Shown in pieces: positions 28,755 through 61,949 of a DNA stretch of 64,000 nucleotides. This stretch comes from Macrostomum lignano (taxonomy: Eukaryota), in NCBI GenBank assembly GCA_002269645.1, contig NIVC01001811.1:124001-188000 (forward strand), given 5' to 3'. Each line of letters starts with the position of its first letter. Position 1 is the stretch's first letter. A program made the position numbers and the translations under genes. Under the pieces are notes generated by a model. That model did no database searches. It saw only the letters and a program-made list of their open reading frames with translations, and had not been told where the DNA came from.

Positions 28755-31031
28755 TTAGGATGTTGACTGCTTCTGAAAATACGATCGAAGCATGCACAAT
28801 TTTGATAGTGTCTCATCAGCCAAGCGCGAACGGATCCGATTTATCAAGATAGCAGCAGCAGAAAAAGCTCTCTCTGCCTCAACGCTTGTAGGAGGAATGG
28901 ACAGAAGGGCACTGTTCATTGTCTGCAGCAGCTTGCCGAGTTGGCCAGTTAACCGCATGAATTCGATCTCACGACCGACTTCGCATTCAATATGAAGTCC
29001 TGTGCCTGACTGTAGGATGGCATGAGAAGACTCACTGTCCAGCTTCTCCAACTCTGCATTGAGCCGTTCCGCCATTGTGGTACTTGGCATTAACAGCAGG
29101 GATGCGTCAGTGTCACTGTAGGTGAGAATATAGCATGGAATTAAATTATTTGCAACACAGGGGAACCTGTGGTCATATTTTTACCGATTACAGGAAATTG
29201 AATCAATAAAATGTAGGATTCGGTGGAATTATCCAATAAAAATTATAGGAAAATTCTTGTTTTTAAATTATTTAAATTATCCCTCCCTTGTATGTAATAT
29301 ATAATACATCCACACAATTTAATTACCTGTTAGAAGGATTTCCAGATGCCTCTCTTTGGTCTTCAGTGGCAGTACTGGCAGACGCGGTTGCAGAGGCGGT
29401 TGCAGAGGCAGATACCAGTGAAAGGTTTTCAGCAATAGAAATTAGCGTATACTTTGCTGCATTCAGTTCTGAAGTACTATTGGCGATGTAACCCTTCCGC
29501 TTTAGAAACTGCAGTGCCAAAGCGGTGCTTCCCTGCCTTTGAAAAAATCGCTTCTTTAAAGCCACCAGCAACTTGTTGGCCAGCATGGTGTTCTGTGTCT
29601 GAAGCTCCTTCACAGCGAAACTAAATGTAGCACCAGCCTTGAGTAAGTTATAGCTGCGGCTTGAAAGCATGGTTATTGCAAGACTCAGAGGCTGGAGTGC
29701 AGCACACAATTCTCGAAGCTGCTGTACATCTCCTTGCTGAAGTGGCAAAACTAGTCCAAGATAAAGCATAGCATTGCACACAGATGCTTCCAACAGAACA
29801 AAATGCTGCACCATATCAAGCAAAGAGTTCCAGCGTGTTTTAACATCTAGAATGAGCTTCAGCTCTTTGCCATGCTGAGCTCGCACAAAGTTCTGAAGAA
29901 TGTCATTTCGTGTTGTGCTACGACAGAAAGTAAGAACCACTTCACGAAGACGACTCAGTGAGACTCGAATGTCACTACTGAACTCAATCAGAATCGCGGC
30001 CATCATCCTGATCCACAGCCCATTTGACACCATCAGCTTCCATGTCTTTATCATTGACAGCAAATTCTACATCTGGCACTTCGATTGCGCCACTGTCAAA
30101 CTCAGAGGCAATGGTCTGAGATGAACTTCGATCATAGACTACATCTGACACAGACAGGTGGATGCCATGGGCATGGCAAAGTTGGTGCTCGACCCTTAGC
30201 AGGCTGGCCAGTTTCACCATGACAGATGCACCATCTGTAATACAAGCAATTACATCTTGCGGAACAACTATGCCAAAATTCTCAAGCCGATTAGTTACTA
30301 GCTGCTGTAAGGCTTCAGCAGTTGCAGAGCCAGTAATGCGCGATCGCGACAGGCCAAGGTTGACGACAGTTGCTTCTAAGTTTGTAGCAGAAGCTGAGTT
30401 TTCTAATCCTGAAGCAGCATGATATTCTGTGTGCAGGTTAATGTTCAGGAAGCGCCGGTTGTTTACAGATGTCCATTCATCTAGTGAAATGGAGAAGTGT
30501 TCTCCACGGGATTTTCGAAGAGCCACTTCCTCACGAATTTTATTTTCCAATGTAGTAGCAACTCCCATGACTTGGTTGCGAATTGTTGTAGTTGATTTGG
30601 GCACTGAAACTCTCCGTGCTTGCAAGGCCAACCTGAGGTCCTTGGATTTTGTGAATATCCTGAAGGACATGCCATCCTTGGCTACCATATGAGCCAGAAC
30701 AGTAGCTGAGTCATTGTCAGATTGGTAGAAGAGTAATTTTCATGATTTTAGAAGGGACTACAGATAAAGTTACTGACTGTTACATAGCAACCTCCTGATC
30801 CTCAGACACTGAACTGTCTGAACTTAAGTTAGGAGCCAAACTTGCAGAAGAGCAAGCACTGCCAGGCTGTGGCTGCTGGCCAAGGACTGATGCATGCTTT
30901 GCCTGAAGATGAGTCAGGAGGCCTTTTGTAAAACCACCAGCAGTCGAAATTGATCCTTCACACAGAGTACAAATGGCACGGGAATTGTCACGTTTTTTGA
31001 AGAACTGCCATGCTTCAGATTTCTGTGCCAT
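28755..31031 (-). pseudogene. hAT transposase (BED finger, DDE core, hATC dimerisation domain), intron-containing and frameshifted
   Basis: BED finger AWQFF..AICTLC..GLLTHLQAKH (31031-30792). Core motifs SLDEWTS, CITDGASVM, LCHAHGIHL and LDVKTRWNSLLDM. Last exon LLSIPPTSVEAERAFSAA..RIRSRL (29115-28755). Frame breaks near 30735 and 29990. Confidence 0.85.
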
Positions 31032-31236
31032 TTTTGAATCACTTCTGAAATTTGAAAAGAAGATGTATATGTAGCTATAGTACTATATTTCATGATGTGT
31101 CACTTATTATCATGGCATCAATTATTTAGACTAAGATACATCATCATGCAACTGGCATGATGAAATTTGGGCTATCATGGCTGCCAGAACAAGGTTTTAT
31201 AGTTGAAAAAGTTCTGCCAGAAGAGCAACTTAAAAT

Positions 31237-32607
31237 CAAGGACTTCTAGACTAACAGGACGTAAAACTCAAAGATCGTGCAATTTTTTAGAGGCCACGAT
31301 TTCCTGGAAAAAATACACTGCGGAGATAGGAAAAAATCAGTTTTTTGTCACAAAAACAGTGATTGTATTTGATCTGGGGCAGTGAAGACTACCATTCTTT
31401 TAATTTAACATGCGCAACATGTTACTCTATTATATTTTCATATAGCTGTGTATTGAAGTTTTCATTTTCATGTTGTTTTTACTTCATTTCATAAGCCCAA
31501 AGTTGCAAATACTCACAAGTGGCATTAGCCAAACTTTTTGTGCTGTTCCTTTTTTGAATCAAGTATATTTGTAATAAAACTATGCATATAGGTACTCTTA
31601 ATCTTTTATTGTACGGTTAGTAACTATACTAGGCCTACTAGTATTAGTTATACCTGTCTACTATTACTACTAGGTATAATGTCTAAGAGTTATGAGTCTA
31701 AGACCTATCAAAGATTCTTGAAAATTAGGCTTTATATATGGAATCACACATCCTTTTATTGGTAAAATAGGCCCTAACTAAAATGACTGAATACAAGGCA
31801 TGTTTGTCTTATTCATTTTCTTGCCTAATGAATAATGATATTTGATCTATGGATTCCAAAATCTTCTTAATAAGTGGGGCATACTTACATTTACAATTTA
31901 TAGGCCTAATTTATTTAAGTTTTTTAATTTTTTAAACATGATTCTAGCTAAAGAGAAGAAAGAAGAGAGAGAAATAAAAATGGTAATATCTATCTGTCTA
32001 AACTCTAAATCATTAATATAATAATAATATGCAATTATGATTTTTATAAATGAAGGACTTTTATTGACCTTATAGTTTAACTTATTAAATCTATACCTCC
32101 TATAGTAAATAAAAACTAATTGAGCTATTAACTATAATAGTAACTCTTATATCATATTATATATTGGAATATATATCTAGGAATTAAATAGTTACTAGGC
32201 CTAATATATGCATTAAAATGGAACTATATCTACAATAAAAGATTAAGAGTACCTATATGCACAGTTTTATTACAAATATACTTGATTCAAAAAAGGAACA
32301 GCACAAAAAGTTTGGCTAAAGCCACTTGTGAGTATTTGCAACTTTGGGCTTATGAAATGAAGTAAAAACAACATGAAAATGAAAACTTCAATACACAGCT
32401 ATATGAAAATATAATAGAGTAACATGTTGTGCATGTTAAATTAAAAGAATGGTAGTCTTCACTGCCCCAGATCAAATACAATCACTGTTTTTGTGACAAA
32501 AAACTGATTTTTTCCTATCTCCGCAGTGTATTTTTTCCAGGAAATCGTGGCCTCTAAAAAATTGCACGATCTTTGAGTTTTACGTCCTGTTAGTCTAGAA
32601 GTCCTTG
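31237..32607. mobile_element. Non-autonomous foldback element with ~377-bp TIRs, nested in the hAT element
   Basis: 31237-31613 is the near-perfect reverse complement of 32231-32607. Termini CAAGG...CCTTG; 8-bp TSD CTTAAAAT at 31229-31236 and 32608-32615; AT-rich non-coding core. Confidence 0.9.
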
Positions 32608-34737
32608 CTTAAAATATACAGTGATTCAAAATGTTGACCAGAAAGCAGAAAAGCTATCTAAATATCTGTTCTAGGAGAAAGTGAACTAATGTAGTTATTT
32701 AATAACATTTATCATTGAGTAATTTGAGTATTAAATGATCCAAAGACCAAAATCAATAAAAACTTTTTTCTATAAAATACAGCCTGACTTTGTGAAATTC
32801 AAAAGTTTTGGCCAGGTTGCAGAATTTGGGCATTCAGGCCAGTTTTTTTCATTTTAGGGCCAAGCCCAAATCTGGGTCAGAGTAGGAGCACTGAATAGGG
32901 GGGGGGCAATTTAAATAATATCTATATATAGTTCTAAATATGTATAGAATAGTAATTGTCTAATGACATTGAATAACTAGATAATTTTTAATATAACTTG
33001 TTTAGACCATGCTTATTAAATAATAAATAATAAAGAAATCAATAATACTATAGGCATAAGAAAAAATAGGCTAATATGAAAGTGATCCACCTTCTTGTTC
33101 AGTTGATGATGTTTTACCCTATCCAATTAAAGAAAAGTACAAGGGCTTCTTGAAGTTTAGGTATATAAAATATTTCCAATTGGTTTTTGACAATAAATCA
33201 TGTCAAAAGGGTTTTCAGGGGTCTTGATTCTAAATTTAAAAGCTTATTTTAAATTCCAATACATTTTTAAGTTATAAAATACTCAACTTTACAAAGCCAA
33301 TGGGACAATGTCAATGAGAATCAAAGGTTTTGGGTGAGGATGATATTGAAGTTAATATTGAGGAATTAATATACCTAAACTTCAATAGGGCTTCATAGGT
33401 GTCTTGAAGATTAGGTATATAGCTAAATTTTGTAAGTTTTTATTGTTGACTTTTGTTACTGTATCCTAGAAAGATGTCTCTGTGCAATCTCATGATTTTT
33501 GCACAATTTGGAATATTTTAAATACCTAAACTTTAAGATGCCCGAGTACAAGACTAATTAACAACTAACAAGAGTAAAATCTTTGTAGGTAATTGTCAAA
33601 ATATTAAAATTTAAATTATAATACATGATGGACTGTCTCAGTCTCGTCTCTTGGTCGTGGACACGTGGTGGAAAATGAAAAAAAGTTTAAATTATCTATC
33701 ATTTACAGTTCACATTAACAATTTTTAGCTCAATTAGGACAGGAGCTTTGCAAATGTTTTTAACGTTTCATTGAGAAACAGCAAAAACAAATAAATAATT
33801 TTTTTATTCAAATAAACGTTTAGACTTTAAACTATCTAATTTAGGCATTGAAAGGTTGTTCTAATCCCGGACCAATCCCTGGGATTAAGGCCTTGAAATC
33901 CCGGGATCCCGATCCCGGACTTTTGCAATCCCGGGATTAAAAAATCGGGGATTGGAATCCCTACCTATTTATACACCATTTTTTCAAAGCATATATATAT
34001 TTAGGAATCCAAAACTTTTACTTAGGGCCTAACTTTAAAATGGCTGTTTTTTTGCTAAAAACTGATATTCTTTGTTTTAATTTGGACTTTCTTATAATTT
34101 TGTGTTATTATTTTCTATTTTAGTTTCTGATTATTTTTAAAGAGCTTTAGACTTGGTTGATATTCAACTGCACAATTATATTAGCCTTGAACTTGGCTAT
34201 TTTTTTGTATGCCGACTGTACACTTCATGTCAAACCTGAAAATTCTATATGCCAAGTGTATGCCAAGATTGTTAGCGAGACCAAAAATATGCCAGAATTT
34301 TCTGGCGTAAAGGCCACCTTCTGGACTATAGATGGGTTGGATAGGTATTATGCATGTATAAATTGTATGTGTACACTAGAAAATTCTGGCATATAAATGA
34401 CCTTTTCAAAGTTGGCATTCCAATTTTGGTGCACAAATTGATGCCAATTTTTTGGTATACCAATTTTGGTAAATAAATTCATGCCATGCATGAAAATTGT
34501 ATTGTAAATTGATATTTTTATATAAAATAAAGGAAATTTTATATAGTCTAGAAAGTCAGTGATAAACTTTTTGCTTCTTTAAAATTAACAATGAATAAAA
34601 TAAGTATAAATGATTGCTAAGAATATTTGCTAAAAAAATTTTGCATAGGCCGAATTATTTATATAGGTTTAATTTTAGTTTGTTTTAAATAAAAATATTT
34701 ATAATATTTAAAAAATACTTTTTGTACAAAAGCCTTA

Positions 34738-35746
34738 TGAGGTGGGGGTGGAGAAGAACTTTTCTGGACGGTTGTTTTTGAATTTGCAGGCACCAGTGAG
34801 GTGGGGTGGATTCCTCGTTTGAATTGCCGCCGGCGTTGAGTTCGCACGAATAAAACCAGAAAAATGTGCAGACGAATCACAACAAAATTTCTTCTCCTGT
34901 TTTACTCTGACAGCCGGGTTCTCAAGTCCGGGGGGAGGGTAGTCGTAATTGTAGCAGAGTGGTCGTTAGCGGCGCGGTCATTCAAAGCGGTGAAACACCG
35001 GAGATACAGACACCGTAAATTAATGTGTCGATTTGCTGAGCTTGTTACTTTCAGTAGGGTAGAGCTGCCACCACCGTAATTTACGTATTACGGAACGAAT
35101 CAGTCTCTGAGCTTTCTTTGAGCTGAGAAAACTTGGTTATTTAACGCCCCACGGGCAAAAGACTCAAGATAGGCTATGGCTTAATGTCAACGAATGAATA
35201 TTAATAAATTGGCGGAATATTAATTTTATTTATCGGTTTGAGCAGGATAACTGATAGATTATTTAATTATTGATGGAGATGGATTCGGCGTGCCGCGGTG
35301 TGACGACTAATTAACTGGCGAATTGACCAAAACTTATACCACTAAAACACAAAAACATAAAACACACAAAACACGCCTAGAAAACCAAAACACAAAAACA
35401 AAACAAAACAAAACTAAACAAAACTTTTGGAAACAATCATGTAAACCATCGTTTTAAATAGAGGGGAGTGATCGGTCACATAGTGGGGACAGAGGCTGGG
35501 CATGCACAGTGGGAGAAGAAAACACGTAAAAGGGGCGGCTTGAACATATAGCAAAAAAAACAAAATTATGATACACATCCAGCAACGTGTAAGCAGTACA
35601 CGTTGCAGGTAAAGACAAACCAACATCGGGAGTGATGTCACTCCAATGAAGGGAAACGCAACGGTTCGCCATGCACATGCAAAAAAGAAAAAATTAAACC
35701 TGCCAAATTTCAGTCTTTGCATCTTCGTGGCAACCCGCCTGCCACA
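34738..35746 (-). repeat. 3' LTR (1009 bp)
   Basis: Near-identical to 42533-43546, with TG/CA termini. Confidence 0.95.
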
Positions 35747-35764
35747 TGCGTTGGGGGGCCGGTA

Positions 35765-36364
35765 TTACTGGCGAGAATTGGCAGCTCCCGCTGTCGTTGT
35801 ACGCCCTTGGCCGCGTCCGGTTGGGCAAGGGTCGCGCGGTTGATCCTCAGTTGGGGCGCGCTGGGGCGGTTGGGGTGCCAAGTTGACGACTGGGGGCCAT
35901 CCTTGGATGGTTATGCGACCGTTGATAATGTGGAGCCTCTCCGGGTACTTCTCGACGGCCGCGTCCCAAAAGGCTCTCAGACGCTCGTCCCAGCCGGCCT
36001 CCAGATGTCCGGCTTCAAAATATGCCAGCGCAAGAAAGAACGCTAGGGCCGGACGGGGCTGGCCTTTCTGCCGGAGGTGTTCTTCTGCTCGGCCTAACTG
36101 TTCGTCGAGAAGGTCGCGGGTGGATGCCGGAGGCATGATGCTACAGAGTTGCCGCCAAGGGGCATCAATTTGCACCCAGCCCTTCTTGACGGCTTGGGTG
36201 AAGGCGTGAAACAGTGCCTGTCGTAGGCGGATGCGCGCCGGTGCTGCTCCGGTCGCAGCTGCGTTGTACACTCGGAGAGTTGACGCGTCCTCCTGACTGA
36301 GCCACGGTGCCCGGTGCAGGGTAGCCTCCAGGTCAGACGCGCGAAGGGCAGGGTCGCTGGACAT
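35765..36364 (-). CDS. ORF3 of the Gypsy element, 199-aa protein of unknown function in the env position
   Basis: Uninterrupted ORF between pol and the 3' LTR. ATG at 36364 in a caacaacATG context; stop 18 bp before the LTR. No signal peptide and no long transmembrane segment. Confidence 0.65.
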   Translation of the reverse strand: MSSDPALRASDLEATLHRAPWLSQEDASTLRVYNAAATGAAPARIRLRQALFHAFTQAVKKGWVQIDAPWRQLCSIMPPASTRDLLDEQLGRAEEHLRQKGQPRPALAFFLALAYFEAGHLEAGWDERLRAFWDAAVEKYPERLHIINGRITIQGWPPVVNLAPQPPQRAPTEDQPRDPCPTGRGQGRTTTAGAANSRQ

Positions 36365-36531
36365 GTTGTTGCAGTGGTACACAAAATAGATAAAACAAGA
36401 CTAAAGGGGTAAGCAAAATATTTACAGGAGGATCTAATTACAAGTGGACGATGGGGATAGCGCAGTCGAAATAATAGTAGCCGAAGGAGATGATAGCACG
36501 GAGGCAAATTACAATTTGAGAAAAATTTGGA

Positions 36532-39500
36532 CTAGAGATAGATCGCGGCCCATACCGATGTCAGGCAGATCCGGGTCGCCTTCGGGCAGCACTTCCGGAT
36601 GGCGGAGGCTCGGCTCGAACAATTGGCTGCCGCGCAGATCAGGCTGAGCTGCGGCTGGCTGTTCTGGAGCGGACTGATCGGCTGGTTCGACTTCGCTTTC
36701 ATCACTCGACTCGCAGGGCAGCATTGGCTGTTGGCCATCATCTGTGGCACCTTGATGATGTTGTTGCGGTGTACAAGCATTTCGGCGGGGCGTCCACGTC
36801 GGGCTGTCGCAGGCTGGATCCAATAGGCTACTTCGCCGACCTTTCTGTTAACCTTGTACATACTCTTGTACGGCCGGTGGAACTTTGGCAATTCGCCCAA
36901 CTCGAGCTTCGGGTTGGCTAAGCAGACCAGATCTCCGGGCTGCAGTTCCACGGGCTTGGGTCGGTTCTCGTAATACTCTTCGCGACGTTGGATCTCAGCT
37001 CGCAATCGCTGTCGCACAATCCTCTCGGTCTCGGCCAGTCTGCGCTGATGCTTCGCGATGTACTCGGGGAGGTCCGGCGATACGTCCAAGCGGTCTAGGG
37101 TGTTATCGATTGGGTACCGATAAGGCACTCCGTAAACAACGTAATGCGGCGAGAATCCCGTCGTACGATTGACAGCTGATCGCAGGGCTGTCAAAGCGGC
37201 TGGCAGCATCTTGTCCCACTGTTGATGATCTTCGAGAAGACAAGTGAGCACCTTCTTGATGTTTTTGTTGCACAATTCAGCTTGACCGTTTGCCCAGGGC
37301 GAGTATGGCGGCGTCATTGTCTGCCGGATGCCATAGACTTCGCAGAAATGTCGAAACTCGTGCCCTGTGAACTGTTTGCCTTGGTCCGAATGGATCCACG
37401 CGGGGATTCCGGTGATCGGGAAGACTTGTTCCTGCAGCAGAGTTATGATCGTCTTGGCCCGCTGATTCTTCATGGCGAAGGCGAATGGATATTTCGACGT
37501 AGTGTCGACATAGGTGAGGATGTACTTGTTGCCTCGGTCTGTCGGGTCGCCAGTAGGGCCCATGATGTCGATCGCACATTGCCCATAGATTTCGCAGACC
37601 GGAAATGATTGTACATGCGCCGGGATGCGTCGCCATCCTTTGCTCTGAGTGAAGGTCTGGCAGGAAGCGACATAGTCGGACACGGCCTTGGCCAGGGCCG
37701 GCCGCCAGAACCTCTCGCGCACCTTCGCGATGGTGAGATCTCGGCCCATGTGTCCGCAATAGGGCAAACCATGCAGGTCGGCGAACACCGTGGCATCGAG
37801 ACTCTTCGGCAGGACGATCCTTGTTTTATCCTCTTCGCCAACATCGTCGAGATGGATAACTAATAGTCCGTCGTCTCGGACTTCCAATTGCTCGTAGAAT
37901 GCTAGGAGATTTCTCTCGTCTCTCGTCAGGTTTAATCGCTGATTCAGCGGCGGCTTCGGTTGTCGACTTTCGATTAAGTTAATCAGCATCGCGATAGCAG
38001 AGTCAGCTCGCTGATGGGTCTGGAGCTCCTCGCAAGTGACTGGCCTCGGAATGTGATCCGTTAAATTCAAAGTTTGGCGTCGGTTAGTCGGATTAGTCGG
38101 CGCGGCTTCGGCTGTGGCGGCGTGGTTCGGGGTCGGGAGCTCCCTCCGCACGATCGCTACGCTGGCCTGTTGCCGTGTCGTTGAAGAATTTGAAGGCCAA
38201 TCCTCGTCGGTCATGTCAGCATCGGCTACGTCAGCATTAGATTCGTCAGCAGATGAGAGTGAGTCAGCGGAACTGTCGGTATCAAGGCTGAATCTCACCT
38301 TCTTGAACACAGGACGGCGAGCGGGTTGGCAGCGGTCTTCGCTGGCTGCGCTGTGGTCGCTATCCTCGTCGCCTTCAGCTAGTAGCCGGCGGCTCCTTGA
38401 CGGGCAACATGTTGTGCTGCTGAAGCTGGTGGGCGACCTCTGTGAGTCCCGATAACGACTGGCAGATGGCCTCGACTTCGTCGCCGGTGGATGCAGCTCT
38501 GTCAGCGGCTTGCTGTCGGCTGTCAGTGTTGCGGGCGGCGTAGTCTCGCCGTTGGACTCAGTTGATTTCGTCGGCGGCTTTCGTCGGTGACGGCGGGTCG
38601 GTCGCTTCTTGCTCGGTGGAGGACTAGGGTGGCTGCTGTCGTGGACCTTCAGCGCCGCTGCGCCAGTTATCGCGGCTGGCTGCTTACTTTGGTCCTCGAC
38701 TGCAGCCTCTCGCTGAGCCTCTTCCAAACATTCAGCGTCGTCCTCAGGCCGTCTTGAGAGACCGTCGGCGTTCTGGTGCTGACTTGATTTTCGATGCTGG
38801 ATCTCGAACTCGAATTCACTTAGGCGCTGTAACCATCGTCCAAAAATTCCTTCTTGCTGAGTTCGTCGGAGAATCCAGGTTAACGCGGCATGATCGGTTT
38901 GGCAGATAAACTTCTTGGCCAGCAGGTAGAATCTGAAGTGTCGCATTCCATCTACGACTGCCAAGAGCTCTTGCTTTGTAATTGGATAACGGGCTTCGGC
39001 TGGTTTGAGTCGCCGGGAGAAATAGCCAATTGGTCGCTCAACTCCATCAGCTTGGCGTTGGCTCAGGCAGGCTCCGATTCTGGTCGCAGAAGCATCCGTG
39101 TCCAGGATAAACATTACACTAGGATCCTCGCTGAACTGCGGATACGCGAGCACTGATGTCGAAGTCAAGGCTGCTTTGAGCTGGTCAAACGCGTCTTGCT
39201 GGGCTTTTCCCCATAGACAATTGAAATTTCGGATTTTCTTCTCTTTGATTAAATCGTGGAGCGGAGCAGCAAGTTCTGCGTAGCCAGGTATGAATTTAGC
39301 ATAGTAAGCGCACGTGCAGACAAAACTTTTAAGTTGTCGCGCTGTTCTTGGTCTTGGCCAGGTTTGAATTGCCTCAATCTTCGCCGGATCGGTCTTGATT
39401 CCGTCCTTCGTTACCACATGTCCCAGATAGTTTAGACTTTCCCGAAATAGATGGCACTTTTTGCCTTTGAACTTTAAGTTAGCTTCTTGGACTCGCCTAA

Positions 39501-41103
39501 ATACCTCTTCCATATGCTGCAGATGGTCCTTAAATTTCTTAGAATAGATGATTACATCATCCAGGTAGGCGATAGCACTTTTATAGGCAATCCCGTTGAG
39601 CACAGCGTTCATGAGGCGCATGAAGCTGGCTGGTGCTGAGCTGAGTCCCATTGGCATAACATTGTAGGCGAATTGTCCGCGGTGCAGCGTGGCAAAGGCA
39701 GTCAGATCTTGATCCTCTGGACGCAGCGGAATCTGATAGTAGCCGCTATTGAGGTCGAACGTACTGAATAGCTGGCTTCCTTCGAGGCTGGCGAATGCTT
39801 CTTGGATATTAGGAATCGGGTACGGAAAGTACTCGCACTTTTGGTTCAGACTCCTGAAATCTTGTACAATTCTTAGGCTGCCGTCCTTCTTCGGGATGAT
39901 CACCAGCGGGGTGTTGTAGCTGGAGAAGCTCAGTCGAATCACGCCTTTGGCAAGTAGATCGTCGAGTAGCTGATCCACTTTGGGCAGCAGATGCGGCGGG
40001 ATCCTTCGCGTCGGGAGATGCACCGGATTAGTGTCCTTTAGCACAATACTGTGGGTGACCAGATGAGTTTGGCCGAGGTCGTGTGGCCCCTGAGAAAAGA
40101 TGTTCTTGTACTTCTTTAGCAGCTCGATGACCTGAGCGCGCTGGTCACTGGACAGGTCCTCGCTGATGTCGATCTCCTTGATCCACGCGTCAGGATCCTC
40201 GTCTTGGATTTGGTTGACCGAATCTTCTGACTTCAATGGAAAGAAATGTAGCTCAGGCAGTCTGATGGGTCTCGCAATCCCGACTAGGGCATTCGCTCGC
40301 ACTTTGATGGCTGTAGTGCCTCGGTTAATCATCTCGATGGCGCCTTCTCCATTAGCCATAGAAATCAGGGCAGGCGCGGCGTCCAGATGCTGCACATCTT
40401 CTTCGCGCTGAGCCGGTTTCAGCGGCTCGATCACAGCAGGTGTACCCTGGTTTTCCTCGCGTCCTTTAGCTAGCTTGATTTTAATCCGGGCTGATGATAG
40501 CGGCGGCACAGTTGTGCTCTCAGCCGTGTAGATTCTGCGCGTGGTGGCTTCAGTTCGCGTATAGCGGAGTGGTGCGGCAGTGCCGTCCTTAAAGAACAGC
40601 ATCCCGGCGGCAAGATCCAGGGAGGTGCTGTACTTCTCAAGGAACTCGAAGCCCAAGATGTTGTCATGCGATCCTTTCGCTAGCAGAAACTTGACGGTAG
40701 GCTCGAAATTTCCGATCTTCACTTTGATAGTTAATTCTCCTGCCATCTGGATAGGTTCACCATTGTAGGTCACAATGCGCTGCAGGCAGGGCTTGATTTG
40801 GCCACGCAGGGTCGGGTCGTCGGTACATAGACGGTGCCAGGTGCTGAAGCCTAGGACTTCGCATTTGGAACCGGTGTCAAGCAAGAAAGCAAAATAACGG
40901 CCTTGAATCTCACCAGTTAAAAATGGATCCCTTCGAGGTCGCTTAGGTGCAGAGTTCTGTACAGGTGCGGTGGAGGCGGTCTCAGCAGTGGCCTGCTGAG
41001 CGACTAAAGTCCTCGGCGGGGACTTTAGTGCTGGCTCAGCTGCTGGATGGCGCTGCCCCCGATGGCGCTGCCCCCGATGGCGCGTCCAGCCGTCCCGTTT
41101 CCC
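36532..41103 (-). CDS. pol: Gypsy Pol polyprotein (protease, RT, RNase H, integrase)
   Basis: FLLDTGS (protease), YNTPLVIIPKKDGSLR..YLDDVII (RT), ILDTDAS..NADGLSR (RNase H), H..PYCGHMG, IDIMGP..HSDQGKQF..AELCNK (integrase), PKFHRPYK (GPY/F-like). Confidence 0.95.
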   Translation of the reverse strand, partial: GKRDGWTRHRGQRHRGQRHPAAEPALKSPPRTLVAQQATAETASTAPVQNSAPKRPRRDPFLTGEIQGRYFAFLLDTGSKCEVLGFSTWHRLCTDDPTLRGQIKPCLQRIVTYNGEPIQMAGELTIKVKIGNFEPTVKFLLAKGSHDNILGFEFLEKYSTSLDLAAGMLFFKDGTAAPLRYTRTEATTRRIYTAESTTVPPLSSARIKIKLAKGREENQGTPAVIEPLKPAQREEDVQHLDAAPALISMANGEGAIEMINRGTTAIKVRANALVGIARPIRLPELHFFPLKSEDSVNQIQDEDPDAWIKEIDISEDLSSDQRAQVIELLKKYKNIFSQGPHDLGQTHLVTHSIVLKDTNPVHLPTRRIPPHLLPKVDQLLDDLLAKGVIRLSFSSYNTPLVIIPKKDGSLRIVQDFRSLNQKCEYFPYPIPNIQEAFASLEGSQLFSTFDLNSGYYQIPLRPEDQDLTAFATLHRGQFAYNVMPMGLSSAPASFMRLMNAVLNGIAYKSAIAYLDDVIIYSKKFKDHLQHMEEVFRRVQEANLKFKGKKCHLFRESLNYLGHVVTKDGIKTDPAKIEAIQTWPRPRTARQLKSFVCTCAYYAKFIPGYAELAAPLHDLIKEKKIRNFNCLWGKAQQDAFDQLKAALTSTSVLAYPQFSEDPSVMFILDTDASATRIGACLSQRQADGVERPIGYFSRRLKPAEARYPITKQELLAVVDGMRHFRFYLLAKKFICQTDHAALTWILRRTQQEGIFGRWLQRLSEFEFEIQHRKSSQHQNADGLSRRPEDDAECLEEAQREAAVEDQSKQPAAITGAAALKVHDSSHPSPPPSKKRPTRRHRRKPPTKSTESNGETTPPATLTADSKPLTELHPPATKSRPSASRYRDSQRSPTSFSSTTCCPSRSRRLLAEGDEDSDHSAASEDRCQPARRPVFKKVRFSLDTDSSADSLSSADESNADVADADMTDEDWPSNSSTTRQQASVAIVRRELPTPNHAATAEAAPTNPTNRRQTLNLTDHIPRPVTCEELQTHQRADSAIAMLINLIESRQPKPPLNQRLNLTRDERNLLAFYEQLEVRDDGLLVIHLDDVGEEDKTRIVLPKSLDATVFADLHGLPYCGHMGRDLTIAKVRERFWRPALAKAVSDYVASCQTFTQSKGWRRIPAHVQSFPVCEIYGQCAIDIMGPTGDPTDRGNKYILTYVDTTSKYPFAFAMKNQRAKTIITLLQEQVFPITGIPAWIHSDQGKQFTGHEFRHFCEVYGIRQTMTPPYSPWANGQAELCNKNIKKVLTCLLEDHQQWDKMLPAALTALRSAVNRTTGFSPHYVVYGVPYRYPIDNTLDRLDVSPDLPEYIAKHQRRLAETERIVRQRLRAEIQRREEYYENRPKPVELQPGDLVCLANPKLELGELPKFHRPYKSMYKVNRKVGEVAYWIQPATARRGRPAEMLVHRNNIIKVPQMMANSQCCPASRVMKAKSNQPISPLQNSQPQLSLICAAANCSSRASAIRKCCPKATRICLTSVWAAIYL

Positions 41104-42464
41104 GAGCTGCCGTTGCGCTGGGACGCGGTGCTGGCCGACCGTCGGTGCGGGCATTCGTCGGCGCGATGCTCGCGGTTGCACCTGTAGCACATTGCACTTT
41201 GCCGTCGCAACTGATAAGGCGGCGGCCTCGAACTCGATTGTTGCTGCTGTGGCCGCTGCTGCTGCGGCTGCTGCGGCTGTTGCAGCTGCTGATGTCGACG
41301 TTGACCTCCTGCTGGCGGCGTTCTCGGCGGCGGGTTGCTGCCGTTGCGTGGTTGCTGAAGTGGATGGAACTGGTCATGTTGCACAATTCGTGTGCCGGGC
41401 GTCGTAAACTGGACGCTTCCGTCGGCGCTGCGGCGAGGAGTCGATGGTACCAAACATCTGGAGCGTTGGCCCCACGAGTCCCGCGGCTGGTGACGAGGTT
41501 CCCATGGCTCCGGGGCGTCGTTATCGCGCGATCCCCGCGAGTAGAACTCTCGCATCTCATTGCTCAATGTCTCTAATAGGCGTCGCTGCTCTTGCAGAGT
41601 CTCGGCTTGTTGTTCCATGACCTCACGCAACCAGTTCTCCTCGGGCCGAGATGACTTGTCGTCGTGTTGCGCCACAGTGGGCGGCTGACTGTTGTCATCC
41701 TCGAGGACCCGGACGTGTCTCGCTGCTGGCGGCGGTGCTACTCGCTGAGCCAGACTAGCTGCTGTCTCCAAGCGTAGCACGGCCCGTCTTGCTGCGGTCA
41801 GATTCTGCGGTCGCACCAGGATTAGCTGTTCTCTCGCCGACTGAGCAATCCGCACTCCCACTGTGAACTGATCTACCAGTTCAGCCTGCTTCTGAACTGG
41901 GGTAAAATGCGGAAATGCTCTATCAGCCAGAGCAATTAGTCGATCGCCATAGTCGTCAACGCTCTCGTTCTTGCCTTGCTGGCAGCTTCGGAACTGCTCC
42001 CGGTACTCCAGCGTGTCGGCGACATGCGTAAAACGTTCAGACAATCGTTGTTTGAACTCCCCAAACGTCAGATTGTCTGGCAGCTCCATCCTGACGACTG
42101 CGGGATAGGTTGTGGCGATGTCCAAATTCACTAGGACCTCCGCCTTCTTGTGTCTGTCGTCTGTGATCCCGTTGAGCTCACAACGCTCTTCCAGCGCCTG
42201 GATCCAGACGTCGAATTCCTGGTTCTGCGTGTACCGCTGAATCTTGACCGGTTTCAGCGCCGGAGCTCGATCCTGCTGCTGGGGCTGCTGGTACACATGA
42301 TGATGGTGTTGCGGCTGGCCCAGGCTGGTCTGCTCCAGTCGCCGGCGCACCTCTTCGGTCACCGCGCGAATCATCTCGTCGTAGGTCGGTCTTGTCGTTG
42401 AGTTGTCGGGGCCCGCGGCGTCGGCTGTCGCGTCCGCGGCCGTTGGATCAGTAGTTGAAGCCAT
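41025..42464 (-). CDS. gag: Gypsy Gag with CCHC zinc knuckle
   Basis: 479-aa ORF with a capsid-like region (FDVWIQALEERCELNG..FRSCQQGKNESVDDYGDRL..QFTVG) and CYRCNREHRADEC. Confidence 0.92.
   Translation of the reverse strand: MASTTDPTAADATADAAGPDNSTTRPTYDEMIRAVTEEVRRRLEQTSLGQPQHHHHVYQQPQQQDRAPALKPVKIQRYTQNQEFDVWIQALEERCELNGITDDRHKKAEVLVNLDIATTYPAVVRMELPDNLTFGEFKQRLSERFTHVADTLEYREQFRSCQQGKNESVDDYGDRLIALADRAFPHFTPVQKQAELVDQFTVGVRIAQSAREQLILVRPQNLTAARRAVLRLETAASLAQRVAPPPAARHVRVLEDDNSQPPTVAQHDDKSSRPEENWLREVMEQQAETLQEQRRLLETLSNEMREFYSRGSRDNDAPEPWEPRHQPRDSWGQRSRCLVPSTPRRSADGSVQFTTPGTRIVQHDQFHPLQQPRNGSNPPPRTPPAGGQRRHQQLQQPQQPQQQRPQQQQSSSRPPPYQLRRQSAMCYRCNREHRADECPHRRSASTASQRNGSSGNGTAGRAIGGSAIGGSAIQQLSQH
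41097..41103 (-). promoter_or_regulatory. Candidate -1 ribosomal frameshift slippery site G GGA AAC
   Basis: The gag-frame codons tcG GGA AAC lie in the gag/pol overlap, and pol is in the -1 frame relative to gag. Confidence 0.7.
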
Positions 42465-42510: not shown

Positions 42511-42531
42511 ATCCCACTTAGCTGACCACCA
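42511..42531 (-). other. Primer-binding site, tRNA-Leu(CAA)-like with insertions
   Basis: TGGTGGTCAGCTAAGTGGGAT lies 1 nt after the 5' LTR. Compare the canonical Leu PBS TGGTGTCAGAAGTGGGAT. Confidence 0.65.
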
Positions 42532-42532
42532 G

Positions 42533-43546
42533 TGAGGTGGGGGTGGAGAAGAACTTTTCTAGACAGTTGTTTTTGAATTTGCAGGCACCAGTGAGGTGGG
42601 GTGGATTCCTCGTTTGAATTGCCGCCGGCGTTGAGTTCGCACGAATAAAACCAGAAAAATGTGCAGACGAATCACAACAAAATTTCTTCTCCTGTTTTAC
42701 TCTGACAGCCGGGTTCTCAAGTCCGGGGGGAGGGTAGTCGTAATTGTAGCAGAGTGGTCGTTAGCGGCGCGGTCATTCAAAGCGGTGAAACACCGGAGAT
42801 ACAGACACCGTAAATTAATGTGTCGATTTGCTGAGCTTGTTACTTTCAGTAGGGTAGAGCTGCCACCACCGTAATTTACGTATTACGGAACGAATCAGTC
42901 TCTGAGCTTTCTTTGAGCTGAGAAAACTTGGTTATTTAACGCCCCACGGGCAAAAGACTCAAGATAGGCTATGGCTTAATGTCAACGAATGAATATTAAT
43001 AAATTGGCGGAATATTAATTTTATTTATCGGTTTGAGCAGGATAACTGATAGATTATTTAATTATTGATGGAGATGGATTCGGCGTGCCGCGGTGTGACG
43101 ACTAATTAACTGGCGAATTGACCAAAACTTATACCACTAAAACACAAAAACATAAAACACACAAAACACGCCTAGAAAACCAAAACACAAAAACAAAACA
43201 AAACTAAACAAAACTAAACAAAACTTTTGGAAACAATCATGTAAACCATCGTTTTAAATAGAGGGGAGTGATCGGTCACGTAGTGGGGACAGAGGCTGGG
43301 CATGCACAGTGGGAGAGGAAAACACGTCAAAGGGGCGGCTTGAACATATAGCAAAAAAAACAAAATTATGATACACATCTAGCAACGTGTAAGCAGTACA
43401 CGTTGCAGGTAAAGACAAACCAACATCGGGAGTGATGTCACTCCAATGAAGGGAAATGCAACGGTTCGCCATGCACATGCAAAAAAGAAAAAATTAAACC
43501 TGCCAAATTTCAGTCTTCGCATCTTCGTGGCAACCCGCCTGCCACA
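42533..43546 (-). repeat. 5' LTR (1014 bp)
   Basis: Near-identical to 34738-35746. The minus strand has a TATTTAAA-like box (~43253-43261) and AATAAA (~43020). Confidence 0.95.
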
Positions 43547-44060: not shown

Positions 44061-45397
44061 TATGCTCTGCCCTTTCAGTTTAGCCTTCTACAAAAAAGTC
44101 TAATTCTTATTATAAGCTACAATTCTCTGAAAAAAACTAAATCCTCTTGCGCCTGTGTCTTTGCAGATAAGCTACACTAAGAGTTGTGCAGCAGAGCTTC
44201 TACTCATTTTATAGGAAATAAACAACAAATTTGAGAGAATCTTCAAGACTCCAAGATCTTCAGTTAGCAATATATAGATTGTGTTTAGAGATATGCAAGT
44301 AGACTCAGCCAGCTGACAAGAGGTGACATGGTGATCCTCTTATAAAGCAGCTTCTACCTTCTGCACCAACTATGTTGTTCTCGTTAAACAAGGCCTACTT
44401 TGAGGTTTATCTTGAATGTCTTCTTTGCTGTCAAGAACATTTGCCATCTAGCGACAAACAGTGTCATATGATAAACAAGAGTCTGCCTTGGCTTGATGCA
44501 TGATTTTGTATGTCTCTTTTGGAGATAGCCAAAGCAAGGCATGGAACTTGATACAGATACCTCCACTGCACATTTGCTTTTAACTACATCAGTCGAGAAT
44601 GAATCTCCGCACCATGTTCATCCAGAGAGAATTTGTCTTAGAGATTGCTTCTTCTTAGCGTTTTGGTACACTGATGAGCAGTTCCTCTGTCCAGGCGTGA
44701 ATGGCAGTGCTGGCAGATTGTCACGGGTTGTCATCACTGGTAGGTAGGTGGCTTGCCATGGGGATGCACGCTGACCCTCCACAATCCAAGACCCTGGCCA
44801 ATTGGAATCGACTTGGCAATCCAGCATTGGCTGCACTTGCATGGTGGCAATGACCAAGTAAGGTTTGTTATCTGGATGGTTAAGGAGTTAAAGAAAGCAT
44901 CATCTTTGAAGCCTATTGGTGACACTGTTCTGGAGTGCATCAGAAAGTTCTATCTTCCCGATTGTGACCGCAATTATGAGCGACTACCTGTAGCACTGTG
45001 TGCATTGCCAAGTTCTGTTAAAAATTTCTTGGGTACAGTTTTGAAATGCTTATAACTTTTGGTAGATGGTATTGCTGTGAAATTTTATGCCTATATGAAA
45101 CAAAGCTAAAAGAGAAGAGATTTTAGGTATAGTTTCAGTGATCACAGTTTAGAAATGTTTTGCAACACTCATATTATATTTATACTAGTTTATTTGCCAA
45201 AATATAGACTTGCCAAAATACAGAATTTTAGTTCATATTTGCCAATTGAAAATATCCCTGTAAGCAATGGATAGCATATTATAGTCTGTGAGAATATGCC
45301 TAATGATAAGTGTGAGAGAAGTAGACTTAGAATACAGCACAATCATTTAGAATCCGACACTACAAGGCCAGATTTCTGGTTATATTCTGTCCCTCAG

Positions 45398-48300
45398 GAG
45401 GAAGTGGATCACCAAGTGGACCTATCGGATGGTCCCAGCGACAATGGCGCCAGCAAAGACCAACGCTCCGACACAGTAGACCTGAACGGCACCGACCTGA
45501 GAGTGGACATTTCCGACGCATTAAGCGAAAAAGAGCGAGTGAAATTCACTGTGAGAACTGTCACTACTCTGGTGCCGAGATTTGCTCAGCCGGAGTTCTC
45601 CGTAGTTCGAACTCACGAAGAATTCGTCTGGCTAGCCGACCGACTGGCTGAGAATGTCGACTATGCTGGGATAATTATCCCACCGGTGCCGCCTACTCCG
45701 GATTTTTCCACTTCCCGCGAGAAACTGGCTCGGTTGGGTGATGGCGAGGGCACAATGACTAGGGAGGAGTACGACAAGATGAAGTCGGAGCTTGAAGCGT
45801 GAGTTGAATGCAGTGTACTGAGCTTCTTGTATTTAGAATCTTAGACGCTAGTTTTTAGCGCTCCTGCGGTTGAATATCGCGTTTTCGTGTTTTTCGGCGT
45901 CTTTGGCGTTATTTGGCGCCAATATTGGTGTCATTTAGCGCGTTATTGGTGTGATTTGGCGTTATTATTGGTGTAATTTAGCGCCATAATTGGTGTCATT
46001 TAGCTCCACTATTGGCATAATTTAGCGCCATAATTGGTTTAATTTGGCGCCACTATTGGTGCCATTTAGCGCCACTATTTGTGTCATTTAGCGCCATTAT
46101 TGGTGTTATTTATTTAGCGCCATTATTGGTGTTATTTAGCGCCATTATTGGTGTTATTTATTTAGCGCCATTATTGGTGTTATTTATTTAGCGCCAGTAT
46201 TGGTGTTATTTATTTAGCGCCAGTATTGGTGTTATTTATTTAGCGCCAGTATTGGTGTTATTTATTTAGTGCCAGTATTGGTGTTATTTATTTAGCGCCA
46301 GTATTGGTGTCATTTATTTAGCGCCAGTATTGGTGTTATTTATTTAGCGCCAGTATTGGTGTTATTTATTTAGCGCCAGTATTGGTGTTATTTATTTAGC
46401 GCCAGTATTGGTGTTATTTATTTAGCGCCAGTATTGGTGTTATTTATTTAGCGCCAGTATTGGTGTTATTTATTTAGCGCCACTATTGGTGTCATTTATC
46501 TCCACTATTGGTGTCATTTAGCGCCATTATTGGTGTCATTTAGCGCCATTATTGGTGTTATTTTGCGCCACTATTGGTGTCATTTTGCGCCAATATTGGT
46601 GTCATTTAGCGCCACTATTGGTGTAATTTATTTAGCGCCATTATTGGTGTTACTTATTTAGCGCCACTATTGGTGTTATTTATTTAGCGCCACTATTGGT
46701 GTTATTTATTTAGCGCCACTATTGGTGTCATTTAGCGCCATCATTGGTGTTATTTATTTAGCGCCACTATTGGTGTTATTTATTTAGCGCCACTATTGGT
46801 GTCATTTAGCGCCAATATTGGTGTTATTTATTTAGCGCCACTATTGGTGTCATTTTGCGCCACTATTGGTGTCATTTAGCGCCAATATTGGTGTCATTTT
46901 GCGCCAATATTGGTGTCATATAGCGCCATTATTGGTGTTATTTATTTAGCGCCACTATTGGTGTCATTTAGCGCCATTTTTGGTGTGATTTATCGCCATT
47001 ATTACTGTTATTAGACTCCAGCAATTTCATTTTGCGAATTTTTACCCCTAAAAGCGACTTTGCTTTTTTGCATTAACTTTATAATTATGCAAATTTATTT
47101 TAATCAAATTCAGGTAAAGTGAAAACGTTATATATCCAATTTCGTAAAGTTTTACGCAAACCTTCAAGTTACCTTATTAGCCTACAATCTGCAGTTTCGT
47201 ACGAAGGACTAAATGGATAGGGCCAGTCTGAAGTGTTTTTTAATTAAAATATTCCTATTAGTAAAGTTATTTACACAGCATATCGTCGTCAAGTTACTTC
47301 GACTAATATGATTAAAGTTAATACATGTAGTCAATTTATAATGAGTTATTTTAAGTATGGAAATTTGTTGATATAAAACTACTGTTAGTAGACTGTGCGA
47401 ATTTCAAAACCTTTAATTATTCTCTTTAATTTTTTAGAGAGTACTTGGCCACATTCAAAAAGACAGTTGCTATGCACGAAGTTTTCCTTCGTCGAATTGC
47501 CGAACATCCAAAGTTACGCGAGGATGAAATTTTTAAAGTGTTCCTTGAGTACAAGGAAGATGTGAGTTGACGCCAATATTCCAGCTATCGTCTAATTGCT
47601 ATATTTGACAAATATATCTTGATAATTACCCTTGGCCTTATCTAGCTTAGCCGTTGGAGCCCTTTAAGTTCCAACGTACACACCGCCTGACAGACCGACC
47701 CCAATGTACACACAGCCTCAGACACCAACCCCAATGTACACAAACAGCCTCAGACACCAACCCCAATGTACACAAACAGCCTCAGACACCAACCCCAATG
47801 TACACACAGCCTCAGACACCAACCCCAATATACACACAGCCTCAGCCACCAACCCCAATCTACACAAACAGCCTCAGACACCAACCCCAATGTACACACA
47901 GCCTCAGACACCAACCTCAATGTACACAGCCTCACAGACCAACCCCAATGTACACTCAGCCTCACAGACCAACCCCAATGTACACACAGCCTCAGACACC
48001 AACCCCAATGTACACTCAGCCTCAGACACCAACCCCAATGTACACTCAGCCTCACAGACCAACCCCAATGTACACTCAGCCTCACAGACCAACCCCAATG
48101 TACACTCAGCCTCACAGACCAACCGTAATGTACCCTCGCTAACCCATCGATCATCGGTTATCTTTCAGCTTAACGTCCGCGGCAAGAACAAGAAAGAAAA
48201 AGTTCAAGGCTTCCTCAAAAGCGGCTGGAAAACTGTCGATGACGTCATACTGTCAGCTCAAAAAGAGAAAGACGAATTTTTCGAGGGCCAGAAAAAGTTC

Positions 48301-58490: not shown

Positions 58491-59024
58491 CTTATTTCCT
58501 TCGCATTATGCCTCCTACATTGCAAAGTAAAATGTCGCTCTTACTTTTATTAAATTAAATAGCCGAATGCTTTTATTGCCCTGTCACAAATTATCGCTGT
58601 TCACACGATTGCTGTGTTCTTAATATTTTTTGGAAAAGCCAAAAACAAAGCGACTGCATACTGATCATTTCTATTTTAGTCCCAAATTCATAAGGTTTAC
58701 TGCATTAATCAGCGTTTTCGGTTATACTAAACTTTTATTATTATTTTTTGCATTTTTCTTTTTTAGTTTGCTTTTGACCGGTACTACTTCATCAATTGGG
58801 TTTTGCAAATATTAGACTCTCGCAAAATATAAATAATGCCACGTAGCTTTGAAGTGTCTTGGCATACACATTTTTAAGAAGGTCTTTAAGTAATAAACTG
58901 GTTAAATTATTATTGTCGGTTTTTTAAACCTTGACTGGATGCTTCAAAGAGCTCAACTGCCTTAATATAACTTCATTCTTATATGCCTTACTGTGTAGCT
59001 TTCAACTGAAATGTTGTTGGACCT

Positions 59025-61850
59025 TAGAGGGCAGCGGGATTCACTGAGGGGTCTGTAAAGAGGGTAGCGGGATTCACTGAGGGATCTGTAAAGAGGGTAG
59101 CGGGATTCACTGAGGGATCTGTAAAGAGGGCAGCGGGATTCACTGAGGGATCTGTAAAGAGGGCAGCGGGATTCACTGAGGGATCTGTAAAGAGGGTAGC
59201 GGGATTCACTGAGGGATCTGTAAAGAGGGTAGCGGGATTCACTGAGGGATCTGTAAAGAGGGCAGCGGGATTCACTGAGGGATCTGTAAAGAGGGCAGCG
59301 GGATTCACTGAGGGATCTGTAAAGAGGGTAGCGGGATTCACTGAGGGATCTGTAAAGAGGGCAGCGGGATTCACTGAGGGGTCTGTAAAGAGGGTAGCGG
59401 GATTCACTGAGGGGTCTGTAAAGAGGGTAGCGGGATTCACTGAGGGATCTGTAAAGAGGGTAGCGGGATTCACTGAGGGGTCTGTAAAGAGGGTAGCGGG
59501 ATTCACTGAGGGGTCTGTAAAGAGGGCAGCGGGATTCACTGAGGGATCTGTAAAGAGGGTAGCGGGATTCACTGAGGGGTCTGTAAAGAGGGTAGCGGGA
59601 TTCACTGAGGGATCTGTAAAGAGGGTAGCGGGATTCACTGATGGGTCTGTAAAGAGGGCAGCGGGATTCACTGAGGGGTCTGTAAAGAGGGTAGCGGGAT
59701 TCACTGAGGGGTCTGTAAAGAGGGTAGCGGGATTCACTGAGGGATCTGTAAAGAGGGCAGCGGGATTCACTGAGGGGTCTGTAAAGAAGGTAGCGGGATT
59801 CACTGAGGGGTCTGTAAAGAAGGTAGCGGGATTCACTGAGGGATCTGTAAAGAAGGTAGCGGGATTCACTGAGGGATCTGTAAAGAAGGCAGCGGGATTC
59901 ACTGAGGGGTCTGTAAAGAAGGTAGCGGGATTCACTGATGGGTCTGTGAAGAGGATAGCGGGATTCACTGAGGGATCTGTAAAGAAGGTAGCGGGATTCA
60001 CTGAGGGATCTGTAAAGAAGGTAGCGGGATTCACTGAGGGATCTGTAAAGAAGGTAGCGGGATTCACTGAGGGATCTGTAAAGAAGGCAGCGGGATTCAC
60101 TGAGGGATCTGTAAAGAAGGTAGCGGGATTCACTGATGGGTCTGTGAAGAGGATAGCGGGATTCACTGAGGGATCTGTAAAGAAGGTAGCGGGATTCACT
60201 GAGGGATCTGTAAAGAAGGTAGCGGGATTCACTGAGGGGTCTGTAAAGAAGGTAGCGGGATTCACTGAGGGATCTGTAAAGAAGGTAGCGGGATTCACTG
60301 AGGGGTCTGTAAAGAAGGCAGCGGGATTCACTGAGGGATCTGTAAAGAAGGTAGCGGGATTCACTGAGGGATCTGTAAAGAAGGTAGCGGGATTCACTGA
60401 GGGATCTGTAAAGAAGGCAGCGGGATTCACTGAGGGATCTGTAAAGAAGGTAGCGGGATTCACTGATGGGTCTGTGAAGAGGATAGCGGGATTCACTGAT
60501 GGGTCTGTGAAGAGGATAGCGGGATTCACTGATGGGTCTGTGAAGAGGATAGCGGGATTCACTGATGGGTCTGTGAAGAGGATAGCGGGATTCACTGAGG
60601 GATCTGTAAAGAGGGCAGCGGGATTCACTGAGGGATCTGTAAAGAAGGTAGCGGGATTCACTGAGGGATCTGTAAAGAGGGCAGCGGGATTCACTGAGGG
60701 ATCTGTAAAGAAGGTAGCGGGATTCACTGAGGGATCTGTAAAGAGGGCAGCGGGATTCACTGAGGGATCTGTAAAGAAGGTAGCGGGATTCACTGAGGGA
60801 TCTGTAAAGAGGGCAGCGGGATTCACTGAGGGATCTGTAAAGAAGGCAGCGGGATTCACTGATGGGTCTGTGAAGAGGATAGCGGGATTCACTGAGGGAT
60901 CTGTAAAGAAGGTAGCGGGATTCACTGAGGGATCTGTAAAGAGGGCAGCGGGATTCACTGAGGGATCTGTAAAGAAGGCAGCGGGATTCACTGATGGGTC
61001 TGTGAAGAGGATAGCGGGATTCACTGAGGGGTCTGTAAAGAAGGTAGCGGGATTCACTGAGGGGTCTGTAAAGAGGGTAGCGGGATTCACTGAAGGGTTT
61101 GTAAAGAGGGTAGCGGGATTCACTGAGGGGTCTGTAAAGAGGGTAGCGGGATTCACTGAGGGGTCTGTAAAGAAGGTAGCGGGATTCACTGAGGGGTCTG
61201 TGAAGAGGATAGCGGGATTCACTGATGGGTCTGTGAAGAGGGTAGCGGGATTCACTGAGGGATCTGTAAAGAAGGTAGCGGGATTCACTGAGGAATCTGT
61301 AAAGAAGGTAGCGGGATTCACTGAGGGATCTGTAGAGAGGGTAGCGGGATTCACTGAGGGATCTGTAGAGAGGGTAGCGGGATTCACTGAGGGATCTGTA
61401 AAGAAGGTAGCGGGATTCACTGAGGGGTCTGTAAAGAGGGTAGCGGGATTCACTGAAGGGTTTGTAAAGAGGGTAGCGGGATTCACTGAGGGGTCTGTAA
61501 AGAGGGTAGCGGGATTCACTGAGGGGTCTGTAAAGAGGGTAGCGGGATTCACTGAGGGATCTGTAAAGAGGGTAGCGGGATTCACTGAGGGGTCTGTAAA
61601 GAGGGTAGCGGGATTCACTGAAGGGTTTGTAAAGAAGGTAGCGGGATTCACTGAGGGATCTGTAGAGAGGGTAGCGGGATTCACTGAGGGATCTGTAGAG
61701 AGGGTAGCGGGATTCACTGAGGGATCTGTAGAGAGGGTAGCGGGATTCACTGAGGGATCTGTAAAGAAGGTAGCGGGATTCACTGAGGGGTCTGTAAAGA
61801 GGGTAGCAGGATTCACTGAGGGATCTGTAAAGAGGGCAGCGGGATTCACT
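59025..61850. repeat. 33-bp minisatellite array (~85 copies)
   Basis: Unit agcgggattcactgagggatctgtaaagagggt with a few recurring variants. The long repetitive ORFs here are by-products of a unit length divisible by 3. Confidence 0.97.
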
Positions 61851-61949
61851 CTTATAAATCTTCCATTTAAATACTTGCTTCACATAATTTCAGTAAATCA
61901 TACATAAATATCGAAAACTTGAAACGATATTTTGTCAGTCAGTGTCAGC

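Follow-up and report, generated by a model that had tools for sequence, protein, structure and literature searches.

Between pol and the 3′ LTR, a family of Ty3/Gypsy elements of Macrostomum lignano very probably carries one of two alternative genes under selection, type A or type B, together with an internal promoter. The window, the whole stretch of 64,000 nucleotides that was analysed, contains on its minus strand a complete Ty3/Gypsy LTR retrotransposon, in which gag and pol lie on the same strand as a third ORF (ORF3) of type A. Its parts, in the direction of the element, are the following:

42533..43546, minus strand: 5′ LTR (from comparison of the LTR pair)
42511..42531, minus strand: primer binding site, which we take to be tRNA-Leu-like
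41025..42464, minus strand: gag (ORF list and Pfam)
36532..41154, minus strand: pol (protease, RT, RNase H, integrase), the last ~60 codons being off the siblings' frame
36539..36550, minus strand: junction left by the loss of about 1.4 kb in this copy alone (sibling comparison; the junction occurs once in the genome)
36365..36538, minus strand: remnant of the ORF3 leader, holding CCCTTTAG at 36401-36408 (sibling alignment)
35765..36364, minus strand: ORF3 type A, 199 aa, MSSDPALRASDLE...GAANSRQ (ORF list, genome matches, dN/dS)
35891..36313, minus strand: helical core conserved in type A (about residues 18-158; alignment and model)
35768..35890, minus strand: disordered Pro/Gln/Arg-rich tail of ORF3 (model and alignments)
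35747..35764, minus strand: C/G-rich tract at the expected position of the polypurine tract
34738..35746, minus strand: 3′ LTR, the first ~550 nt subfamily-specific and the last ~450 nt common to the family

The LTRs are 98.7% identical and run from TG to CA; a 4-bp target duplication (CTTA) and a primer binding site are present, and gag followed by protease, RT, RNase H and integrase is the order of Ty3/Gypsy. A polypurine tract is absent from the window element and 12 relatives, that is, from 13 of the 15 loci with a located LTR start, which have a conserved C/G-rich tract instead. Since the other Ty3/Gypsy hallmarks are present, the missing polypurine tract is an oddity of this family, and plus-strand priming may be unusual as a consequence. 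Beyond a break near 36730, the pol frame of the window copy differs from that of its siblings. Among the proteins compared, the nearest RTs are those of other M. lignano proteins (56-63% identity).

Elsewhere in the window, broken transposase-like ORFs at 29323-31031 (minus strand), which we take to have a BED-finger-like start and a resemblance to hAT, adjoin a 380-nt inverted repeat at 31234-32610. An exon-like ORF at 45296-45802 (plus strand), presumably resembling the PX domain of a sorting nexin, has the retrotransposon upstream of it on the opposite strand, and a 33-nt unit is repeated over 58894-62000 in a long array (86 overlapping register copies).

The preliminary description of ORF3 as an intact 199-aa ORF in gag-pol orientation, ending 18 nt before the 3′ LTR, agrees with the present coordinates, as do the start context, the CCCTTTAG stretch, the six Trp residues and the 11-aa hydrophobic run reported there. 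The helical core and P/Q/R-rich tail that it proposed reappear in a structure model as a confident helical bundle and a disordered tail (mean pLDDT 78.6, most of residues 41-130 above 90); in sister subfamilies, this tail is common to type A and type B genes. The hydrophobic run is predicted to form one helix of the bundle. That description had seen neither a signal peptide nor a hydrophobic run long enough for a transmembrane helix, and the highest 19-residue hydropathy is indeed low, with 1.16 for the window ORF3 and 0.6-1.6 for 22 members. Together with the missing furin site (R-x-K/R-R) in the window protein and the missing match to any Pfam env family, this supports the claim that ORF3 is not env. 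A chromodomain is not indicated either, as there is no Pfam chromo match and the model is helical and not beta-rich. ORF3 is, as modelled, a conserved, soluble helical protein.

Type A is represented by at least 113 six-frame matches across the genome, fragments included. For 60 of them, 10-kb stretches were sampled, with stronger matches favoured and some near-duplicates skipped, and at 50 of these 60 loci a gag/pol piece of at least 75% identity lies upstream. Including the window, the type A core is unbroken at 27 of 61 loci, contains stops at 24 and is partial or frameshifted at 10. Although 34 of the 61 loci are broken, comparison of copies shows purifying selection, with dN/dS values well below 1: 0.14 between the window ORF3 and its nearest intact relative, and a median of 0.23 for the unsaturated pairs among 153 from 18 selected elements (37 of the 153 pairs are saturated). 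The broken copies would suit a reading of ORF3 as neutral passenger, as remnant of env or as host DNA that was captured, but purifying selection at saturated dS, 11 invariant columns in the type A alignment and the confident fold speak against it, and the only database homologues are themselves element-derived. This reading is largely refuted and hardly credible. What stands is the original proposal of an accessory, non-env ORF in an undescribed Gypsy family: it is selected, has no Pfam env family or chromodomain and lacks the hydropathy of env.

Among the 18 selected elements, RT shows a median identity of 94% and a dS of 0.97, against 51% and 2.2 for ORF3; in one pair (L049 and L057) RT dS is 0.04 and ORF3 dS is saturated. 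The integrase and type A trees are incongruent (19 elements), each rejecting the other with an AU p below 1e-48. The variable block comprises the promoter region, the ORF and the first ~550 nt of the LTR, and this promoter-ORF-U3 block evidently recombines against gag-pol. At L091 and L099, a tandem duplication of about 1.4 kb has a type A gene inside.

The preliminary description missed that A and B are alternatives in this slot. A search with the integrase end gave 150 scored matches, from which 40 without a nearby A match were fetched. At 31 of these loci a different ORF of about 200-280 aa is found (17 unbroken, 14 broken), and 9 have neither type. This second gene, type B, has 75 matches across the genome and a median dN/dS of 0.34 (unsaturated pairs among 91). 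Its predicted layout is an acidic, proline-rich N-half of ~110 residues, with 14-22 acidic versus 0-8 basic residues, followed by a five-helix domain and an Arg/Gly tail. Young A copies at seven loci have LTR pairs that are 99.2-100% identical where they overlap; at 12 type B loci, five pairs are at 100%, three at 99.6-99.8%, one at 98.5% and one at 93.7%, and two loci have no pair. A third gene type considered at L107/L108 was rejected, being seen only there and having no promoter motifs, and a divergent pol adjoining L082 belongs to another element.

A and B elements of one subfamily have a common promoter region, tail and LTR, and their middles are unalignable. When the flanks of 91 loci are clustered, both types occur in 8 of the 26 clusters on the promoter side and in 8 of the 36 on the downstream side. 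Ten A/B pairs matched by hand have flanks of 81-97% identity on both sides: one stretch reaches approximately to the start codon, and the other extends from the tail across the LTR. The A/B breakpoints differ between the subfamilies of these pairs, and the boundaries were for this reason rejected as splice sites. For the U3 of the window, there is no B element among 29 matches, which include five A-type 3′ ends; the B relatives nearest to this U3 type have only the tail and the LTR start in common with it (82%).

Within one element A and B are mutually exclusive, except at three fused relic loci. According to a comparison of two match lists by eye, C616, C1020 and C2108 are the only places where matches to A and B adjoin; at these loci the A core forms an in-frame fusion with the B helical domain, the acidic half being missing. 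Across the 10 matched pairs, A distances correlate with B distances (Mantel r 0.64, p 0.0002). In tree tests the B tree is compatible with the A alignment (p 0.17), but the A tree is rejected by the B alignment (p 0.0002), so co-divergence is imperfect; linkage to common flanks likewise predicts a correlation of A and B distances. Comparison of the A and B profiles reaches significance with the common tail (88%) but loses it when the tail is left out (0.7%). The models of A and B have similar helix patterns, 15 entries are common to both top-50 fold lists, and residues 21-128 of 9e5c align by eye to A 42-141 and B 114-214 in a consistent register. A common fold of A and B, as judged from these models, is plausible.

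A and B could be counter-defence proteins that act independently and without mutual contact, for example in anti-silencing, in a VANC-like manner or as host-factor decoys, with frequency-dependent selection keeping both. The fast and old diversification of ORF3 against near-identical gag-pol, as in L049/L057, fits such a role, and the non-coding repeat array of the spacer (described below) resembles the VANC arrangement as far as the available parts of PMC5735166 and PMC10398659 describe it. The explanation is nevertheless improbable: overall dN/dS is well below 1, and independent genes need neither co-divergence nor fusion.

The only database homologues of type A are Mlig017912 and Mlig013834, both annotated as host hypothetical proteins. 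Mlig017912 (L070-L072) consists of A only, and Mlig013834 (L076, L079, L080) is the fusion of A with the B domain that lacks the acidic half; an attempt to read the extra domain of Mlig013834 as a duplicate of the A core failed. At three loci each, the frames of these relic genes are intact and transcribed-looking and gag-pol is decayed or missing, which suggests host capture and makes both genes candidates for domestication. The three loci are near-identical (4-9 differences for Mlig013834, 1-4 for Mlig017912) and therefore too alike for dN/dS to show host selection or domestication. Neither identifier occurs in the literature found or in the supplements of PMC12801592, PMC5816591 and PMC5730564, to the extent that these are available. 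Some 3 kb away from the three Mlig017912 loci, the opposite strand carries LTR pieces of the window's U3 type (L164, L166, L167). Intact, transcribed-looking relics at three loci each, left over where gag-pol is decayed or absent, would also be compatible with A and B as an exclusion or poison-antidote pair that controls copy number, the host keeping the relics as restriction factors. With relic loci that are near-identical and too few to show host selection, such a putative toxic or restricting role is quite improbable.

The start of ORF3 does lie 167 nt past the stop of the pol frame, as first described, but this short distance is private to the window copy and does not hold as a design of the family. 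In full siblings pol and ORF3 are 1.4-1.6 kb apart; the window copy has privately lost about 1.4 kb, and its short pol-ORF3 distance is thus not the family's design. At the deleted spot, siblings have a tandem motif array and a TATA-type internal promoter, and the deletion ends at the position of the TATA. In another young A-type copy (L057:1220-1804) the whole spacer is deleted, with a junction unlike that of the window.

A TATA-like box is present upstream of ORF3 at 70 of 91 loci, compared with 6.1 expected from resampled sequence, and mostly lies 67-93 nt after a conserved box. The latter was also considered as an RNA hairpin, gave weak z-scores (0.5 to -3.4) and is kept as a DNA promoter element. 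Among subfamily-specific 10-mers common to the internal promoter and U3, none stood out. Expression of the type A or B ORF probably starts at an internal promoter of the element; this promoter is lost in the window copy, and the window ORF3 is therefore probably not expressed that way. A weak hint of internal-promoter transcripts comes from contigs at the relic locus L071, where the TATA is at 2016. Three presumed-RNA runs, each from a different study, gave contigs that end at 1964, 1941 and 1960 (52-75 nt beyond the TATA); those of a fourth run, whose kind is not recorded, reach 2517, and one low-depth contig lies upstream of the TATA. The 3′ ends are at about 777-905, near AATAAA, no splice joints are listed for these contigs, and the sole loose end presumably represents sequencing adapter.

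In the preliminary description, ORF3 was proposed to be expressed through a subgenomic mRNA that begins in the 5′ LTR and is spliced into an acceptor in CCCTTTAG. A pyrimidine tract with TTAG does precede ORF3 in the window and in four of six close relatives, and splicing would be the sole route in the window copy, which has no internal TATA. The AG, however, is missing in two of seven alignable close relatives (L045, L050), relatives have the TATA-type internal promoter, and the acceptor is not evident in the other subfamilies. No matching joint is found among the 15 joints listed of 30. Given also the TATA enrichment upstream of ORF3 and the lack of joints in the contigs at L071, the splice route is very unlikely.

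The spacer array, 1.0-1.4 kb upstream of ORF3, is built from 1-16 tandem copies per locus of a ~24-nt motif, an inverted repeat with a GG-containing loop. In total, 234 copies (60 variants) are present in 61 loci, among them L049, L053, L055, L064 and L069, and the array is deleted in the window. It is possible that it serves as a packaging, export or insulator element.

For the window ORF3, word search and searches of ESM Atlas, Pfam, viral contigs and PDB sequences (best E 0.85) gave no homologue; a type A profile search matches M. lignano proteins only. Fold searches with both types return generic helical bundles only. None of the sequence or fold matches points to a function, type B having been compared with the two large protein libraries by exact look-up. 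The best fold match of type B is the translin/C3PO family (Z 9.8, rmsd 2.8, 97 aligned residues, 7% identity); for type A, a translin/TRAX (C3PO) fold is not among the best 50 fold matches listed.

The array and this fold match bear on the idea that A and B are Rev- or CERV-like RNA-handling factors, which would bind the spacer array for export or packaging of genomic RNA. The inverted repeat, with its variable loop and its 60 variants, would suit such a role, a double change in one lineage preserves the pairing, the Arg/Gly tails fit RNA handling, the translin/C3PO family is RNA-binding, and the available part of PMC10309623 provides CERV as a precedent. Conversely, A and B have diverged to 39-51% identity, but the array is kept across subfamilies; the folds of its common variants are weak (-2 to -6 kcal/mol) and not unique, and a match between helical bundles needs a Z of ~13, more than the 9.8 obtained. 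As two alternative genes and the acidic half would also be left unexplained, a function in RNA handling is unlikely.

The reading that is preferred here, with a probability of roughly 40%, is that A and B form a two-partner regulator, working together or against each other on the LTR of their own subfamily. It draws on the position of the genes, the internal promoter, the subfamily-specific linkage to U3, the acidic half of B, the parallel divergence and the fusion. According to this proposal, the internal promoter of an element would produce either A or B. B, with its acidic, proline-rich N-half of ~110 residues, may be the activating subunit, and A, without the acidic half, may be a partner or dampener of B; the Arg-rich tail could provide nuclear entry or contact with nucleic acid. 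If A and B genomes were co-expressed and co-packaged, their flanks would stay alike. A more far-reaching, and doubtful, version is mating-type-like: each LTR subfamily would exist as autonomous A and B forms whose products must meet for switch-on, which would favour co-packaging and recombination of unlike genomes, and the A-only gene and the A-B fusion gene, the latter without the activation half, would have been captured by the host as brakes.

Two old, selected alternative genes held in parallel across about ten LTR subfamilies are an architecture that was not found described. If A and B cooperate or compete, transposon lineages of one genome can depend on each other, and two-partner self-regulation, if true, would be novel among the means by which jumping genes control themselves. 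To our knowledge, accessory genes are uncommon in animal Gypsy elements, and for most of them no explanation has been given. Fungal mating-type idiomorphs are dissimilar sequences that occupy one locus between common flanks and are kept through lineage splits. A and B are likewise unalignable alternatives between common flanks, here in a retrotransposon; the likeness is one of architecture only.

No published description of ORF3 or of alternative paired ORFs was found, repeat databases, the earlier M. lignano LTR classification and bioRxiv supplements being outside the scope of the search; the term 'ORF' is absent from the main text of PMC12801592 in its available part. The same source reports transgenesis and LTR reporters for M. 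lignano, in which the A/B question, including the two candidate host-captured copies, is directly testable.

Several known systems share single features with A and B. In the LTR retrotransposons Tor3b/4b of Oikopleura, an internal promoter situated within pol or after it drives the third ORF, according to the available part of PMC4402516; this ORF encodes a membrane glycoprotein (env), unlike A and B, which are soluble alternatives to each other. LTR retrotransposons of bdelloids contain non-env third ORFs as exchangeable modules, which are described in the accessible portion of PMC5408684 as recognisable enzymes across unrelated elements, while no family matches A or B, which form pairs inside each LTR subfamily. 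CERV of the C. elegans element Cer1 is a novel accessory protein of an animal Gypsy with a demonstrated role in RNA export (PMC10309623, in part); it is a single gene made from a spliced mRNA, in contrast to the alternative A and B genes, for which an export role would be an analogy. The region between pol and the 3′ LTR of the plant element Retand combines tandem arrays with an extra ORF of presumed regulatory role (PMC11963269); its ORFs are antisense and have a TRP28 domain, and the abstract of that source does not describe an alternative pair.

In foamy viruses, two accessory proteins, Tas and Bet, are encoded before the 3′ LTR with an internal promoter, and one activates and the other suppresses (PMC13220597, in the part available). 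Tas and Bet come from one genome by splicing, whereas A and B lie on different element copies; neither Tas nor Bet is among the matches listed for A and B in the Pfam, profile and fold searches, no similarity in sequence or fold having been found, and an activity of A and B would be an analogy. With an accessory ORF beside the 3′ LTR in both systems, and an internal promoter that is indicated here by motif statistics and a weak contig hint, foamy virus Tas/Bet is the nearest working analogy for A and B.
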